55,542 nucleotides of DNA from Thermoprotei archaeon (GCA_003650815.1 QMSB01000002.1:1-55542), one strand, 5' to 3'; positions 20,827-51,557 are shown, counted from the stretch's first letter. A program made the numbers and translations. Notes: generated by a model from the sequence alone, not told the origin.

Positions 20827-22259
20827 GGCAACTCCCTCTCCAAGGTTCTTAAAAACCAGTTGATTTTCTCCTCGGGTATTGTTGCTCCAGCTGCCTTTTC
20901 ATGTCCTCCAGCCTCGCAACCAGTTATTTTAGCTATTTTAGATACAAGGTCTCCTAGAGAGAATTTGGGTATGTCTTTTAGTAATCTGAAGGAAACTTTA
21001 ACGTGGTTAGGCTTGGAGGAAGAGGCTATGAGAGCTAATAGTGTGTATTTTCCTTTAAACATGGGCTTCGATGAAAGTATGGATGAGATAGCTCCGCTTA
21101 TCCTCTCGTCTATTAGACTAAAGCAGTCTACTACTATTGTTTTATTCAAGTAGTTAATTGGCACTTTCTCTTCACTAATTGTTTTTAGGGTTTCACTCAA
21201 TATTCTTCTGTATTTATTTAGAATATTTAGTACTTCATTATAGTAGCTTAGCTTGTTTAGGCAAATTAGTATGCCTATCCATTCTTCTCTTAGTCTCCCA
21301 CATGCGTTAAGAAGAGAAGCGAATTCTCTTGCATCATAGAGCTCTGGATATTTCTCATATGCGTTGATAAAGTATGAGTAACCTAGGATTTTCTCAGCTT
21401 CTTGAGGAGGCACTCCTTCACAAATCATGTGCTTAACTAGCTCTACTACAAGTGTCTTTACCTCATCTTCACTTAAGTCTTTGAGGTATCGAGGCTTTCC
21501 TTCATGGTCAAATGGCTCTATCGAAATTCTTTTGAGGAAGTCTATACAGGCTCTTTCGTCTCCGGTGAGCCCTGGTATATACGGCTCTATCGTGTACTCT
21601 AGACATTTATGAAGAGGTCGTCTTCTTATTCCAAAAAGCCTAATGTTTATTTCACGTGAGATAATCTTTCTCTCCAATGCGTCCTTTAGGATTAGCTTAT
21701 TTAAGCCTAAGAAATCACACTTCTCTCCTTGGTCCTGCCTATCGCCTAATGCTCCAATAACTGCTAGGTGTACACTTTTCTCACCGACGTCTTTATCCAG
21801 CTCTTTAGCTAGAAGATAAGTTATTCCTGCTGTGCTGACTTGGGTAGACCCGTTAATACCATAATTCCATGGATTTACTTCATGTATTTTTTCACTGCTA
21901 ACAGATTCTGCTGAAGGTATGTGATGATCTAAGATAACTATATTAAGCTTAAGGTTTACTGCCATTTCTTCAAGTAATTTTCTATGCCTACTTCCCATGT
22001 CGCATAAAATGAGACACTTATATTCTGGGTATTTTTCAATTAATAGTCTCAAGTCTTCTGCTGAGGGCTGTTCTATGATTTTTATGTGAAAACTTGTCTT
22101 TCTTTTAATTAAAATGTTAGCAATAATCGCAGCTGATGAAAGTCCGTCGGCGTCATAGTGAGAAATTATTAGAAAGGGACCCTCTGAAACTAACTTCTCT
22201 AAATAACTGGCTACTCTCTTCAGCTGACTATTAAAAGCTTTCGCATTGTTGAGCGACAT
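20823..22259 (-). CDS. RecJ-like DHH family exonuclease (archaeal RecJ/Cdc45/GAN-type)
   Basis: Motifs ISHYDADGLSSAAI, ILCDMG, ILDHHIP and GGHEKAAGATI. Confidence 0.8.
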   Translation of the reverse strand: MSLNNAKAFNSQLKRVASYLEKLVSEGPFLIISHYDADGLSSAAIIANILIKRKTSFHIKIIEQPSAEDLRLLIEKYPEYKCLILCDMGSRHRKLLEEMAVNLKLNIVILDHHIPSAESVSSEKIHEVNPWNYGINGSTQVSTAGITYLLAKELDKDVGEKSVHLAVIGALGDRQDQGEKCDFLGLNKLILKDALERKIISREINIRLFGIRRRPLHKCLEYTIEPYIPGLTGDERACIDFLKRISIEPFDHEGKPRYLKDLSEDEVKTLVVELVKHMICEGVPPQEAEKILGYSYFINAYEKYPELYDAREFASLLNACGRLREEWIGILICLNKLSYYNEVLNILNKYRRILSETLKTISEEKVPINYLNKTIVVDCFSLIDERISGAISSILSSKPMFKGKYTLLALIASSSKPNHVKVSFRLLKDIPKFSLGDLVSKIAKITGCEAGGHEKAAGATIPEEKINWFLRTLERELP

Positions 22260-29388: not shown

Positions 29389-30089
29389 CAGATAACACCT
29401 TCCTTTTTTGCTTTAATAATCATACTCTTAATTCTGTCGGTCAATCCCGAGATATGTGCTTCTCTCTCTATTATTTTTATCAGCCGGACAGCAAATAGTT
29501 CTCTAGCCTTATTCCTACTTGTCACGAGTATTCTTCCATTCTGTCCAACTATTATTTCACAGCCTAACTCTTTTTCTAACATAGAGATCATGGATCCTTT
29601 CTTACCAATAACTCTTGGAACTTTAACTGGAGATATCTCTACTAGAGATCCTTTTTCTACTTTTCCGAGCCTTGACTCTTTTATTGTGAGCTGAGGGTCT
29701 CTTGTGAGGTCAAAGGCCGTAACCTTTGCGACTATTATGTCACCTATGTCGAGAAACTTTCTGAGCTGTATCTTTGTTATATCTACAGGTTTAGATAAAG
29801 CATCAGACACTTGTAGGTATCCTGTATAAGGAGAATTTATGTCTACTAGCCAGCTAGCTATACCCACGTCTATTATTTTCCCTATAACTATGTCATTTAC
29901 TCTAGGAATATAGCATCCTTTTAGAGGTATTACTGATATCACTCTTCCGTCCTTTATTTCAGCTAAGCCGAGTACGCTGGAGTATATTCTATTCTCTATG
30001 GCGTATACATTACTTCCTAGTGAATAGTTTCCTTCAGCTAGAAGATCTCCTGGAGCAACTATTTGCCGCTGAGTAAAAAATACTGGCAT
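29388..30089 (-). CDS. rrp4: exosome RNA-binding cap subunit Rrp4 (S1 + KH)
   Basis: S1-like region [12 protein letters not shown]...WLVDINSP and KH region [27 protein letters not shown]. Confidence 0.9.
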
Positions 30090-30093
30090 GAAC

Positions 30094-30804
30094 TCACCTG
30101 CCTCCTGAACGGCTAACTATTTTTACTTCTCCAGATCCTCTTGTGAGAGAAGCTACTTTATCTATGAGCGTTGACTGAAGACCTGCCGGTATCTCTATTT
30201 CTGCTATCCACGATCCGTCACTTTGATACTCGCTTCTAATCAGCTTGCCTAGTCGCATCACATAGCCTTGAACTTTTCCTATGTACTGCGGCGGTATTTT
30301 CAGCCCCACGATAACTTTCTCCATCTTTAAAGGCAGTACTTTTCTGAGCTCTTTTAAAACATCTGTTACTTGTACTTCCACAGGCTTAAATGGATCAATA
30401 CCTACTCTTACCTGCTGAAGAGCTAGTTCTATTCTTTTGGGAGGAATAGGCAATCCTGTACGTGCATCGACACAGTTCCTCGCAATATACTCTATTATTT
30501 GTCTTCTTTTAGCTTCTATTAGCTCTCTTCGCTGCTCTGCTGTTAGCTGAAGTTCTCCTTCTTTCAGTATTCTCTCAGCTACTTTATAAAAATCCAATGT
30601 ACCAAAGACTTTTCTTATATTCTCTTCAGAAGCTTTGAATCCCTTTCTCGCGTCAGAATAGATAATTTCGCCTTCTACAATCTCTCGTATATTAAGCTTC
30701 TTTCCACTTCGGTATTGCCAGGCTTTTTCTGCATCAACTATTATTTCGAATCTTAATTTACCTTTAGTTAAACGAGCTATAACCTTTTGCCTCTTATCGC
30801 TCAT
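30094..30804 (-). CDS. sdo1: SBDS-family ribosome maturation protein (Sdo1)
   Basis: Contains [25 protein letters not shown] and [12 protein letters not shown]. Confidence 0.9.
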
Positions 30805-41763: not shown

Positions 41764-42624
41764 ATGAAGCTGGCGCCATATGTAAGGTTAACTCGCCTCG
41801 AACATGGATTTCTAAGTGTAATCGGAGTCTTGGCAGGAATGATAGCTAATGATATAAGTCACGCGCAGTCTATTCAATGGGTTTTAGCAGTTCTCGTACC
41901 ACTTCTTACTGAAGCAGGGCTTTTTGCACTAAACGATTATTTTAACATAGAGGAAGATAAAATAAATGCCCCAAATAGACCTTTAGTTACTGGCGAAATA
42001 CCAGAACGTCACGCACTTCTCCTAGGTCTAGTCTCTTTAAGTCTAGCGTATATCTTTTCGTTAGCCGCCCTGCTTATTAATAAAATAGACTCCGTTTTAC
42101 TGATTACACTGATTATCTTATCAGGCGTACTCTATGATGTAAAAATAAAAAGGCTAGGATTTCTCGGAAACTTAGTAGTGTCATTCTCTACTGCGTCAAC
42201 TTTTCTCTACGGAGGCTTACTAGTAAGGAGAATTTATCAGATAAATACTGCTACATGGATTATTTTCATCACTGCTTTTACCTCATGTCTAGGGAGAGAG
42301 ATTCTAAAGGGTATTAGGGACTACGAGGGCGATAAGAAAGCAGGAGTAATTACATTGGCTGTCAAGTATGGCTTAAATACAGCTACGCACATAGCTGGCG
42401 CATTAATAGTCATAGCCATAGCTGCAGCTCTATCTAATACACTATTTGTGAAAAACTCTTTGGCATACCTGCTTTTCGTAACTCCAGCCGTAATTTTGTT
42501 CCTACTTTCGGTAAAAATGGTTGCAAAAGCGCCTGAAAACGTTGAGCTATCTGAGAAAGCTAGGAAGTATACCCTTTATGCGATGGGACTAGGACTAATA
42601 GCCTTTCTACTAGGAACTATATAG
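41764..42624 (+). CDS. UbiA-family prenyltransferase, likely digeranylgeranylglyceryl phosphate synthase
   Basis: Contains ALNDYFNIEEDKINAPNRPLVTGEI and a second Asp-containing motif REILKGIRDYEGDKKAG, with ~8 TM helices. Confidence 0.7.
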   Translation: MKLAPYVRLTRLEHGFLSVIGVLAGMIANDISHAQSIQWVLAVLVPLLTEAGLFALNDYFNIEEDKINAPNRPLVTGEIPERHALLLGLVSLSLAYIFSLAALLINKIDSVLLITLIILSGVLYDVKIKRLGFLGNLVVSFSTASTFLYGGLLVRRIYQINTATWIIFITAFTSCLGREILKGIRDYEGDKKAGVITLAVKYGLNTATHIAGALIVIAIAAALSNTLFVKNSLAYLLFVTPAVILFLLSVKMVAKAPENVELSEKARKYTLYAMGLGLIAFLLGTI

Positions 42625-49043: not shown

Positions 49044-49499
49044 TTAAGTAGATGCCTCGCTTAAAAGAATCACTTTACCCCCGGCACTCTCTACTTTCTT
49101 AACAGCTTTTTTAGATGCCTTTAAAGTTACTAAAATGACTGGTTTAGAGATATCGCCCTCTCCTAAAATCTTATTATAACCTAATTTTGTGAGATCAACG
49201 TAATATTTCTTATCTCTTATCTCCACTAATCCCTTCTCGACTAAATTGTCGAGAATAGAGTCCAGGTCTTTTAAGTTAATAGCTCTTATTTCAGGCTTTA
49301 TAGCTGGAGGTCTAGTGAAGCCGTGTTTTCCATACCAGCCAGGAGCATACTTAATGACCCAAGTCCACATGTGTTTGTGAAAACCAGCGTGTCCTCTACC
49401 TCCTCTACCACCACTTTTTCTATGTTGCCCTACTCTACCCCATCCGTGAGTTCTCCAGCCCCTCAAACTTCTAGACTTCTTCTTTCTCCTGACTACCAT
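49044..49499 (-). CDS. rpl15: 50S ribosomal protein L15 (uL15)
   Basis: Contains RGWRTHGWGRVGQHRKSGGRGGRGHAG. Confidence 0.92.
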   Translation of the reverse strand: MVVRRKKKSRSLRGWRTHGWGRVGQHRKSGGRGGRGHAGFHKHMWTWVIKYAPGWYGKHGFTRPPAIKPEIRAINLKDLDSILDNLVEKGLVEIRDKKYYVDLTKLGYNKILGEGDISKPVILVTLKASKKAVKKVESAGGKVILLSEAST

Positions 49500-49770
49500 T
49501 GAACCACCGTCTAAACTAAATCTGAAAGTAAGGCTCTTGCAGAGCTATATAGCTTTTTCGTAGTTCTCAGAAACGCTTGACCTAATACTTTTCCATAATC
49601 CTTTACCGGTAGGTGAAATAAAGACTACTTAAATTAACTGTTTTCGGAAGGTTCAATATCACTATTTGACTCTTGTTTCGGTTTTATTAAGATAAATACT
49701 TCTTGCTGTAACTCCTGAAAAATGTCACTGCGACTCTTCAGCTTGCAGCACTTCGAACTCTAGCGGAAAG

Positions 49771-49778
49771 TTTATAAA
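49771..49778 (+). promoter_or_regulatory. BRE/TATA candidate for the inverted rps5-rpl30 unit
   Basis: cggaaag tttataaa lies ~37-46 nt upstream of GTG 49815 / ATG 49824. Confidence 0.5.
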
Positions 49779-49814
49779 CCTTAAGCATAAAGAGCCATAG
49801 TTGAACCACTTAAG

Positions 49815-50461
49815 GTGAATATTATGAGCGCGCTAGACATGTGGGTTCCTAAGACAAAAGTAGGCAGACTGGTAAAAGAGGGGCGAATAACGTCAATAGA
49901 CGAGATATTCGAGCGAAACTGGCCTATCAAAGAGGTAGAGATAGTTGATACTCTTCTTCCTGACCTCAAACATGAAGTACTGAACATAAATTTAGTTCAG
50001 CGCCAGACGGATAGCCCGCAGTAGCGGGCCCGTAGGCTGGCGAAATAAGCAGATTTCAGGCTGTAGTAGCTGTCGGTAACGAAGACGGCTACGTAGGCGT
50101 CGGTGTAGGTAAAGCTAGGCAAGTGCGTCAGGCTATAGAGAAAGCTATACTAGATGCTAAGCTCAATATAATTCCTGTCAGAAGAGGATGTGGAAGCTGG
50201 GAGTGCCTTTGTAACACTCCTCATAGCGTTCCATTTAAAGTTCGTGGAAAGTGCGGCAGTGTCGAAATAATTCTAATTCCAGCTCCTAAAGGAGTAGGGC
50301 TTGTCGCCGGAGAGACTGCTAAAGCAATACTTAGACTAGCAGGTATTAAGGATGTATGGACAAGAACTAGAGGGGAGACAAGAACTACAATAAATTTCGC
50401 GAAAGCAACTTACGAGGCTCTTAAGAAGACATATGTCATCAAGACTCCCGACAGGTGGTAA
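49815..50461 (+). CDS. rps5: 30S ribosomal protein S5 (uS5), interrupted by a 23-nt BHB intron (exons 49815..50012 and 50036..50461)
   Basis: Exon 1 ends ...LVQRQTD. Exon 2 reads [37 protein letters not shown]...GETRTTINF. Joined, they reproduce the conserved uS5 core. Unspliced, the frame hits TAG at 50022-50024. The start is GTG 49815 or ATG 49824. Confidence 0.85.
50013..50035 (+). other. predicted archaeal BHB (bulge-helix-bulge) intron within the rps5 mRNA
   Basis: Outer helix 50001-06/50037-42. Bulge agg at 50034-36. 4-bp helix 50007-10/50030-33. Bulge ata at 50011-13. Inner 6-bp helix 50014-19/50024-29 with loop agta. Confidence 0.75.
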
Positions 50462-50936
50462 CACCTTGAGAAAAAGGCTAGTCGTAGTCAGAATTAGAGG
50501 CACTGTAGGTGTCCGTAGAGACGTAGAACACACGCTTAAACTACTGCGCCTCGTCAGAAAATTTCACGCTGTAGTAATAGACGATCGCCCGGACTACATG
50601 GGGATGCTCCAGAAAGTAAAGGACTACGTCACTTGGGGAGAGATCGACGCCGAGACTTTAGCAGAACTTCTTAGGAAAAGAGGGAGACTTACAGGAAATA
50701 AAAAGCTGTCTGAAGACATCGTTAAGGAACTAGGCTACGAGAGTATAGAAGATTTCGCTAAGGCAGTAATTGAGTTTAAAGCAGAGCTATCCGACATTCC
50801 AGGATTAAAGCCTATATTCAGACTTCATCCTCCTAAAGGAGGGTTCAAGAGAACTACAAAAAGAATGTATACTGATCGAGGAGAAACGGGCTATAGAGGA
50901 AAGGATATAAACGAGCTTCTACGCCGAATGATATAA
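50433..50936 (+). CDS. rpl30: 50S ribosomal protein L30 (uL30)
   Basis: Contains [25 protein letters not shown]. The start is either ATG 50433 (overlapping rps5) or TTG 50466 just after the rps5 stop. Confidence 0.9.
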
Positions 50937-50942
50937 GTCAAT

Positions 50943-51557
50943 CTACTTATTAGAGCTTAGAAGCTTTTCGTATTTTGAAATAATTTTAGTCTTTACTTCT
51001 TCGAAGTGCGACACTATATCCTCCGGCCGTAAACCTCTCTTAATATACTGAGAGAATTGCTTTTCGTAGAGACTCGGATCTTTCTCCAAGAGAAATTTTG
51101 CATACGCCGCTACATGTTCTCCTTGTATTCGCTCGTCTGAAGGGAAAACTTCAGGCGAGCAAGGTACTTTAAGTCCGGCATCAATAGCTCCTTTTATCAC
51201 TGCAAACACTTTTCCTCCCTTTACCGGTCTATGAAGCCCTATATCTGGAATAGCTTCCTCTATTCCCTTAAGCCTAGCTTTGTAGCCTGCAATAAGTCCT
51301 GTAAGGTAAGCTGCTGAAGTATTTGAACAGTCCCCCAACCAACCATATTTTTTAGCCAAAATTTTTGATGATATTCCTATGACTGTTTCATCTCCCTGAG
51401 GCTTCGCTTTCACTATTTGCACGATAATGTATTTTAGTGTCTTTCTTACAATTAGTCTGAGCTTACCTGAAATAATCATTTTTCTCCTTTTGTAATAGTT
51501 AGTTAAGCCTAGGCGTCTTCTTCTGAAAGGAACTCTATAGCGCCCACCTCTAGCCAT
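50943..51557 (-). CDS. rpl18: 50S ribosomal protein L18 (uL18)
   Basis: Contains [19 protein letters not shown] and [16 protein letters not shown]. Confidence 0.92.

Follow-up and report, generated by a model that had tools for sequence, protein, structure and literature searches.

A probable bulge-helix-bulge intron within the reading frame of the uS5 ribosomal protein gene of uncultured Thermoprotei and Nezhaarchaeales

The stretch of DNA analysed here (55,542 nucleotides (nt) from a Thermoprotei archaeon, GCA_003650815.1, QMSB01000002.1:1-55542; hereafter, the window) contains a gene for ribosomal protein uS5 (rps5, or simply S5) that is interrupted by 23 nt, at 50013-50035, lying within a motif of the bulge-helix-bulge (BHB) type. 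It is considered very likely, with a probability of roughly 0.9, that this insert is a genuine archaeal BHB intron, removed from the transcript by the splicing endonuclease EndA, its flanks being joined by the RNA ligase RtcB. A first-pass annotation of the window had already proposed a spliced intron at this place, and the proposal has gained support from the finding of 16 variants of the insert, all located at one and the same codon and showing helices that covary and a fixed spacing of the bulges, in genes whose exons are under purifying selection; from these observations we infer splicing itself. The intron is not confined to this genome, as it is widespread in several lineages.

The interrupted gene and the spliced product

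The two open reading frames (ORFs) that had been taken for the halves of a split uS5 gene, 49815..50024 and 50123..50461, are both present and lie in different frames. When the 23 nt were excised in silico, a single reading frame of 612 nt plus stop was obtained, starting at the ATG at 49824 and encoding a protein of 204 residues that carries both Pfam domains, Ribosomal_S5 (positions 1-65 of 65) and Ribosomal_S5_C. This product aligned with the solved archaeal uS5 chains without a gap across the junction (E = 2e-94), and its QTDAGEISR sequence is identical in the solved uS5 chains of the Sulfolobales type. The intron is in phase 0, between an Asp and an Ala codon, and it interrupts the N-terminal domain of uS5. 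The predicted junction, which agrees with the GAT/GCT foreseen in the first-pass annotation, reads ...CAGACGGAU joined to GCUGGCGAA... (also written CAGACGGAT/GCTGGCGAA), and an in silico cut between the second and third nucleotides of each bulge restored both the reading frame and the QTD/AGE junction not only in the window but also in every relative. The need for excision can be read directly from the gene: within the intron, a UAG at 50022-50024 closes the frame of exon 1, and the terminal UAG, at 50033-50035, closes that of exon 2.

Both exons contribute to the structure in which the intron is embedded. The last 12 nt of exon 1 supply the 5' strand of both the outer and the central helix, together with two nucleotides of the bulge, and the first 7 nt of exon 2 (G CUGGCG) supply the third nucleotide of the 3' bulge and the outer helix's 3' strand. 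After ligation, these segments (50001-50012 plus 50036-50042) are predicted to form a 6-bp stem, CGCCAG/CUGGCG, closed by a 7-nt loop, ACGGAUG, that is, a stem-loop with the dimensions of an anticodon arm, in which the intron would occupy the equivalent of position 37/38.

The BHB motif and its expectation by chance

In the canonical layout of tRNA introns at position 37/38, both strands carry a 3-nt bulge on the 3' side of the 4-bp central helix, and in the form denoted hBHBh', in which the BHB is flanked by helices h and h', at least one of these flanking helices is required by the relaxed-specificity enzymes. The segment 50001-50042 of the window reads, element by element, cgccag, ACGG, ata, GCCCGC, agta, GCGGGC, CCGT, agg and ctggcg. 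Its two 3-nt bulges lie on opposite strands and exactly 4 bp apart, as they do in all 16 variants; each bulge stands 3' of its own strand of the central helix, the orientation found in pre-tRNAs, and the two flanking helices are both present, with 6 bp each. This hBHBh' structure is both the minimum-free-energy and the centroid fold returned by RNAfold (-27.3 kcal/mol, 81% of the ensemble), is retained when folded in a 151-nt context, and was more stable than all of 200 dinucleotide shuffles (z = -4.1). Sequence and fold thus match exactly the canonical BHB that had been described at this place. The G+C content is 74% in the motif, 46% in the S5 gene and 40% in the window.

A scan for BHB geometry over both strands of the window, which tolerated inserts of up to about 140 nt, placed this motif far ahead of any other and returned it as the sole all-Watson-Crick 6/4/6 arrangement, of which about 0.006 would be expected per window from base composition. 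Other candidates in the window (for example, 21307-21405 and 30040-30141) were weak, AU-rich and contained G-U pairs, and were judged to be chance occurrences. A regular-expression search of 647 kb of fetched loci found no extra copies of the intron core outside the S5 sites.

Related loci carrying an insert at the same codon

A scan of a genome collection with the spliced protein, considering one genome per species, returned 80 loci. The closest genome, an uncultured Thermoprotei metagenome-assembled genome (MAG) denoted here as L001, encodes a uS5 that is 95% identical over the full spliced protein and is interrupted at this very codon by an insert of 24 nt, which has the same stems and differs in the loop (UUUAA) and in one bulge base. 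The insert is absent in Thermofilaceae and other relatives at 72-77% uS5 identity. The first-pass annotation had suggested a comparison of homologues at this codon among Desulfurococcales; the comparison did yield both an interrupted and an uninterrupted state, in L001 and in Thermofilaceae, respectively, but the supposed kinship did not hold, the closest relatives being uncultured Thermoprotei, Thermofilaceae-like MAGs and Candidatus Nezhaarchaeales.

Further carriers came from other searches. A protein-collection search with the truncated N-terminal ORF retrieved gene-called S5 N-termini ending in ...QRQTDSP followed by a stop; on their contigs, this codon is again the site of an insert, of 19-21 nt. 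A metagenome pattern in which only the flanking codons were fixed, and any insert of 12-42 nt was allowed, recovered seven loci, and each insert turned out to be a BHB. An exhaustive HMMER search, together with a second word search, added some 20 further clusters of truncated N-termini, whose last residues are QTD(T/A/I)(A/T) before a stop; two of these clusters correspond to "hypothetical proteins" at the NCBI from Candidatus Nezhaarchaeales MAGs, in contigs of up to 1.6 Mb, and five loci of such clusters have inserts of 22, 24, 29, 30 and 36 nt. In total, 16 distinct insert variants of 19-36 nt were collected, all at exactly the same codon and distributed over three uS5 groups. Group A is composed of the window, L001 and L094, with introns of 23-24 nt and an inverted S5-L30 pair; group B gathers the L081-L097 types, with introns of 19-23 nt in a colinear cluster; and group C (L098 and L103-L106) includes the Nezhaarchaeales and shows introns of 22-36 nt in a colinear cluster with differing downstream genes. 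The uS5 proteins of groups A and B are 71-78% identical, which is about equal to the distance of each group from the intron-less Thermofilaceae. In public annotation, exon 1 figures as a "hypothetical protein" (P0174 and P0178, NCBI QXZ45_05490 and QW701_00030, loci L103 and L081-L088), and exon 2 of the same loci was called from arbitrary internal starts (52-141 residues) or left uncalled.

Two pairs of loci were set aside. In L099 and L100, a Pyrobaculum-like S5 N-terminus is fused to a PD40 beta-propeller ORF, and these are probably chimeric short contigs; the break, from about position 337 onward, directly follows the equivalent codon (QTH), at a point that matches the intron site. In L101 and L102, S5 is interrupted by an in-frame TGA and not by an insert. 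This TGA (at about 1054-1056 and 853-855, respectively) stands exactly where QTDAGE has its conserved Gly, one codon past the intron site, in two unrelated metagenome contigs whose archaeal S5 is otherwise intact, and in both of them TGA also appears to end the upstream L18 gene. It could be a low-coverage G>T error enriched by the ORF-end filter, or else a case of site-specific recoding.

Conservation, covariation and selection

The lengths found among the 16 variants are 19, 20, 21, 22, 23, 24, 29, 30 and 36 nt. The CAG/CUG core of the outer helix is present in all of them and is extended to 6 bp only in the clade of the window, by means of an Arg CGC codon; in the relatives, the outer helix has at least 3 bp and the inner helix 4-10 bp. 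The central helix is ACGG/CCGU in 15 of the 16 variants and ACAG/CUGU in the Nezhaarchaeales MAG L103, where the change is compensatory, as the synonymous Thr codon ACA of the exon is paired with a U in the intron. The 5' bulge is AUA, ACA or ACG, and the 3' bulge is AAG or AGG. Positions 1-6 of the inner helix are paired in every variant, and four of the six show two to four pair types (GC, AU, CG and UA at I1), the remaining two being invariant or changing only with the length of the helix. The loop (3-12 nt) is free to vary in sequence and length. The structure has therefore been kept through compensatory changes, affecting the inner-helix pairs and one pair of the central helix. In the 11 variants used for pair counts, the central and inner helices were 100% paired, and the covariation score was 0.138, compared to 0.043 for shuffles (0 of 500 reached the observed value) and to 0.036 or less for slid controls.

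The flanking coding sequence behaves as that of a working gene. Synonymous sites are near saturation between lineages (pS 0.54-1.0), pN ranges from 0.00 to 0.21 and omega, where calculable, from 0.01 to 0.14, in both exons, which are thus under strong purifying selection; the spliced ORFs are intact in all 16 variants. Codon choice at the junction bears the mark of the structure as well. The Ala codon is GCT in every intron-bearing variant, and the Thr codon is ACG in 15, the remaining one having the ACA with the compensating intron U mentioned above. Among 45 intron-less genes encoding QTDAG, however, ACG was used for Thr in nine and GCT for Ala in five, with all four codons in use at both sites, and the half-sites CAGACGGAT/GCTG were found in none of the 45. 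In the window's own genes, CGC represents 5% of the Arg codons and ACG 9% of the Thr codons, and both rare codons are placed exactly where BHB pairing needs them. Synonymous exonic sites that pair are, consequently, constrained.

Alternative explanations

A different account of the insert would leave the RNA unspliced and have the ribosome overcome the interruption by frameshifting, stop read-through or a bypass similar to that of gene 60. Such translational recoding would fit a short insert with a stable hairpin, a frequent trait of recoding signals, and a stop codon located a few codons past the take-off point. However, the insert lengths (19-36 nt) cover all three classes modulo 3 and a single shift fails; the last three bases of the intron, just before GCU, are UAA or UAG in the frame of exon 2 in each of the 16 variants. 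Most variants also have a stop in the frame of exon 1, either within the intron or at its end, and in the others this frame does not match that of exon 2. No continuous path of sense codons leads from one exon to the other. A gene-60-type hop, as in T4, requires matching take-off and landing codons, and here GAU or GAC at take-off would face UAA or UAG as the pre-landing triplet. Recoding would also leave unexplained the exact 4-bp spacing of the two 3-nt bulges and the covariation of the central helix, and we regard it as highly improbable.

The same can be said of the notion that the gene is an inactivated one, a pseudogene with a disabling insertion, and that functional uS5, a universal single-copy ribosomal protein, is supplied from elsewhere or is dispensable. 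The visible genome amounts to only 55 kb, and the search for a second S5 copy, which found none, covers this window. Yet purifying selection acts strongly on the two halves in lineages that have reached saturation at synonymous sites, the ORFs are intact in all of the variants, the structure of the insert is itself conserved, S5 occupies its normal position in a ribosomal-protein cluster, and the protein collection holds no uninterrupted uS5 that is more than 80% identical. Indeed, the best uninterrupted uS5 recovered from 5.8 billion protein clusters is only 80% identical, and therefore every known close relative is interrupted. Very little can be expected, either, from a split protein, in which a 66-residue N-terminal and an internally started C-terminal polypeptide would assemble on the ribosome: gene callers do annotate two ORFs, but the first start in the frame of exon 2, GTG at 50123, would drop the 29 most conserved residues, whose codons are under purifying selection, and the called C-terminal pieces vary arbitrarily across loci, from 52 to 141 residues. 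As for a sequencing or assembly artefact, which the first-pass annotation had named as fatal to its claim and which is a general possibility for metagenome-derived sequence, with nothing further in its favour, its probability is negligible: it is excluded by the recurrence of the insert in dozens of independent assemblies (ENA, JGI, NCBI and Logan), with sequences and lengths that are specific to each lineage.

Some observations do weigh against a spliced intron. The outer helix has only 3 bp in most other lineages, so that a relaxed-specificity endonuclease would be needed there, and in these same lineages RNAfold favours a pairing that differs slightly in the surroundings of the 3' bulge. 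Of nine spliced proteins looked up as exact sequences, none is present in a collection of 15 billion proteins. Neither EndA nor RtcB was found among the 20 window ORFs scanned with Pfam, and the same scan found no cbf5; archaea in general encode EndA and RtcB. Transcription and translation are coupled in archaea, and a ribosome could arrive at the site, some 190 nt downstream of the start codon, ahead of splicing. Finally, an unsupported single-gene neighbour-joining tree of uS5 does not unite the intron-bearing clades, A and B among them.

Proposed mechanism of excision

In the spliced-intron model, the S5-L30 transcript would fold locally into the hBHBh' structure and so imitate a pre-tRNA anticodon arm that still carries its intron, the S5 intron taking the place that corresponds to position 37/38. 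EndA, which in Thermoproteota is a heterotetramer of the alpha2-beta2 type, would cleave between nucleotides 2 and 3 of each 3-nt bulge, and RtcB would ligate ...CAGACGGAU to GCUGGCGAA..., restoring the frame. For cleavage, ligation and the enzymes responsible we rely, by analogy, on the established biochemistry of BHB, EndA and RtcB and on the precedent of cbf5, whose introns established the rule of a cut between the second and third bulge nucleotides (PMC2738675). The spliced mRNA would then be translated into a full-length uS5 of 204 residues whose core has the conserved sequence QRQTD-AGEISRF, and the 23-mer that is cut out would probably be circularised or degraded. The unspliced mRNA would yield, at most, an N-terminal peptide of 66 residues, because stops close both relevant frames inside the intron.

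A further proposal, which we put forward with little confidence, is that the intron is not a neutral passenger but a conserved checkpoint, by which the output of both uS5 and the co-transcribed L30 would be tied to EndA/RtcB activity. The EndA/RtcB machinery takes part in tRNA maturation and sets pre-16S and pre-23S rRNA free at the BHB stems of their processing; were the checkpoint real, the supply of ribosomal proteins would track the capacity for rRNA and tRNA processing. The proposal is consistent with the maintenance of the intron over a synonymous divergence that reaches saturation, with the stops in two frames, which guarantee a clean off-state, and with the fact that the only other BHB intron in a coding sequence also resides in a ribosome-biogenesis gene, cbf5. 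In a stronger version, uS5, whose N-terminal domain has a double-stranded RNA-binding fold, would bind the BHB hairpin of its own pre-mRNA and exert feedback on splicing.

Comparison with known BHB introns

The cbf5 pre-mRNA intron was reportedly described by Watanabe et al. in 2002, and it is also treated by Yokobori et al. in 2009 (PMC2738675). According to Schwarz et al. (2020), it was the only BHB intron in an mRNA reported earlier, and to it they added an intron in the 5' untranslated region (UTR) of a Haloferax transcript (PMC7714728). The view of the first-pass annotation, in which cbf5 has the only well-established protein-coding BHB intron of the Archaea, thus holds. Neither an intron in S5 nor any in Nezhaarchaeota came up in the full-text literature searched, with subscription-only literature outside its scope, and by the literature covered S5 is the second coding sequence known to carry a BHB intron, after cbf5.

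Like the S5 intron, that of cbf5 is short (22-31 nt in Sulfolobales), lies inside the coding sequence and has BHB-type boundaries with a predicted cut between the second and third bulge nucleotides (PMC2738675); cbf5 pre-mRNA introns, of similar size, are cut by EndA at these same bulge positions (PMC2738675). Both introns have a patchy, lineage-specific distribution, which suggests gain and loss (cbf5 in Desulfurococcales and Sulfolobales), both host genes belong to the ribosome-biogenesis and translation apparatus, and both are mis-annotated by gene callers. The carriers are, however, different: the S5 intron is hosted by Nezhaarchaeales and uncultured Thermofilaceae-like Thermoprotei, and cbf5 is intron-less in cultured Thermoproteales (PMC2738675). 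Phase differs too, being 0 in S5 and 1 in cbf5, where the intron splits the codon of the catalytic Asp after its first base, and so does the motif, a canonical hBHBh' in the window and an unconventional, relaxed BHB in most cbf5 introns (PMC2738675). The splicing of cbf5 has been supported with cDNA and with cleavage assays in vitro, while that of S5 is predicted from sequence. Since its host gene is rps5, the S5 intron does not belong to the cbf5 intron family; it is mechanistically akin to the cbf5 intron, but not orthologous.

Archaeal pre-tRNA introns, said to have been treated by Marck and Grosjean in 2003 at both the canonical 37/38 and non-canonical positions, share with the S5 motif an identical geometry and the same size range. 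The host RNA of the S5 intron is, in contrast, an mRNA with no tRNA-like body, and its spliced loop is unlike an anticodon loop in having C at the equivalent of position 33 and U at that of position 37. In the unconventional cytoplasmic splicing of HAC1/XBP1 in eukaryotes, a protein endonuclease, IRE1, removes a short structured intron (26 nt in XBP1) from an mRNA that otherwise looks mature, and a tRNA ligase, RtcB/Trl1, seals the ends; the reading frame changes and the active protein can be made. The likeness to S5 is one of functional analogy only, as HAC1/XBP1 relies on IRE1 and twin stem-loops in a regulated stress response, whereas S5 has a BHB, identified from its sequence, for which EndA is proposed. 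The BHB intron in the 5' UTR of HVO_1309, from Haloferax volcanii, is an mRNA substrate of the splicing endonuclease, as proposed for S5 (PMC7714728), and its removal appears important for expression (PMC7714728). It is located, however, in a euryarchaeal untranslated leader and its removal rebuilds no protein, while the S5 intron lies in the reading frame (PMC7714728).

Features of the locus and gene neighbourhood

The features identified at the locus are collected in Table 1. With regard to the start of S5, homologues begin MS.LD.W at the equivalent ATG. The TATA-box-like TTTATAAA, about 46 nt upstream of this ATG, is a putative promoter of its own for the inverted S5-L30 unit. The L30 gene lies directly downstream of S5 on the same strand and is probably co-transcribed with it. 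Its start is likely the TTG at 50468, and not the ATG at 50433 of the mechanical ORF list, because the L30 gene of L001 begins MGKRLAVIRIRG right after the S5 stop; a start at 50433 would overlap the end of S5 by 29 nt. The TTG start, if true, would permit the translational coupling of L30 to full-length S5.

Table 1. Position of the elements of the S5-L30 unit in the window
Feature	Position	Strand	Description and evidence
TATA-box-like sequence	49771..49778	+	TTTATAAA, preceded by a purine-rich stretch; read from sequence
Shine-Dalgarno-like sequence	49814..49818	+	GGTGA, 5 nt upstream of the S5 start codon
uS5 exon 1	49824..50012	+	63 codons, MSALD...VQRQTD; ORFs, Pfam, alignment, selection (pN 0.01-0.21, pS 0.54-1.0)
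Complete hBHBh' motif	50001..50042	+	Sequence, RNAfold, BHB scan, covariation
Outer helix	50001-06/50037-42	+	6 bp
Central helix	50007-10/50030-33	+	4 bp, ACGG/CCGU
5' bulge	50011-13	+	AUA
Predicted intron	50013..50035	+	23 nt, A GCCCGC AGUA GCGGGC CCGU AG; in silico excision, cleavage rule of PMC2738675
Inner helix	50014-19/50024-29	+	6 bp
Loop	50020-23	+	AGUA
3' bulge	50034-36	+	AGG
uS5 exon 2	50036..50461	+	141 codons plus stop, AGEISRF...TPDRW; Pfam, alignment, selection
Ribosomal protein L30 gene	50468..50936	+	Likely start; comparison with L001, Pfam L30 on homologous genes

In the region 49044-51557, S5 and L30 are on the plus strand and their neighbours L19e, L18, L15 and SecY on the minus strand. 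L30 and L18 are convergent, with 6 nt between their stops, and L15 and S5 are divergent, separated by an intergenic region of 325 nt. The inversion of the S5-L30 pair is common to the window, L001 and L094 and is absent from the other intron-bearing clades, which show the order L18>S5>L30, followed by L15>SecY where present. As the inversion is limited to the clade of the window, the intron is therefore older than the inversion or independent of it. The ribosomal-protein clusters are rearranged elsewhere in the window as well: between 40489 and 47114, a Methyltrn_RNA_3 gene comes after SecY and before L3-L4-L23-L2-S19, and a UbiA prenyltransferase gene (41764-42624, opposite strand) is inserted between S19 and L22-S3. 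Other translation-related genes of the window encode the CCA-adding enzyme, Kae1/TsaD, TmcA/NAT10, TFB, EF-2 and S15. Aragorn found no tRNA genes in the whole 55.5-kb window or in 12 related loci, and no Rfam family reached its gathering score in the window.

Origin and significance

The identity of the site, central helix and bulges across the three groups would argue for a common origin of the intron, followed by losses or transfer, a history also proposed for the cbf5 intron. For more than twenty years cbf5 has been the single documented case of an archaeal protein-coding gene with an endonuclease-spliced intron, and a second one gives a comparative basis, in this instance with an essential, universally conserved ribosomal protein as the host, several lineages and clear covariation. 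There is also a practical side, since uS5 is a standard single-copy marker in phylogenomics and in the assessment of genome completeness, and in these lineages it is called as fragments; the marker is thus silently lost or truncated, which can affect completeness estimates and marker-gene phylogenies. The combination of truncated conserved ORFs and a BHB scan provides, in turn, a genome-wide recipe for finding further introns of this kind. If the S5 intron is spliced as proposed, the enzymes that splice tRNA and rRNA would be needed for the making of a core ribosomal protein, a dependency that raises the questions of how the maturation of ribosomal proteins and rRNA may be coupled, and of how splicing would outrun coupled translation in these archaea.

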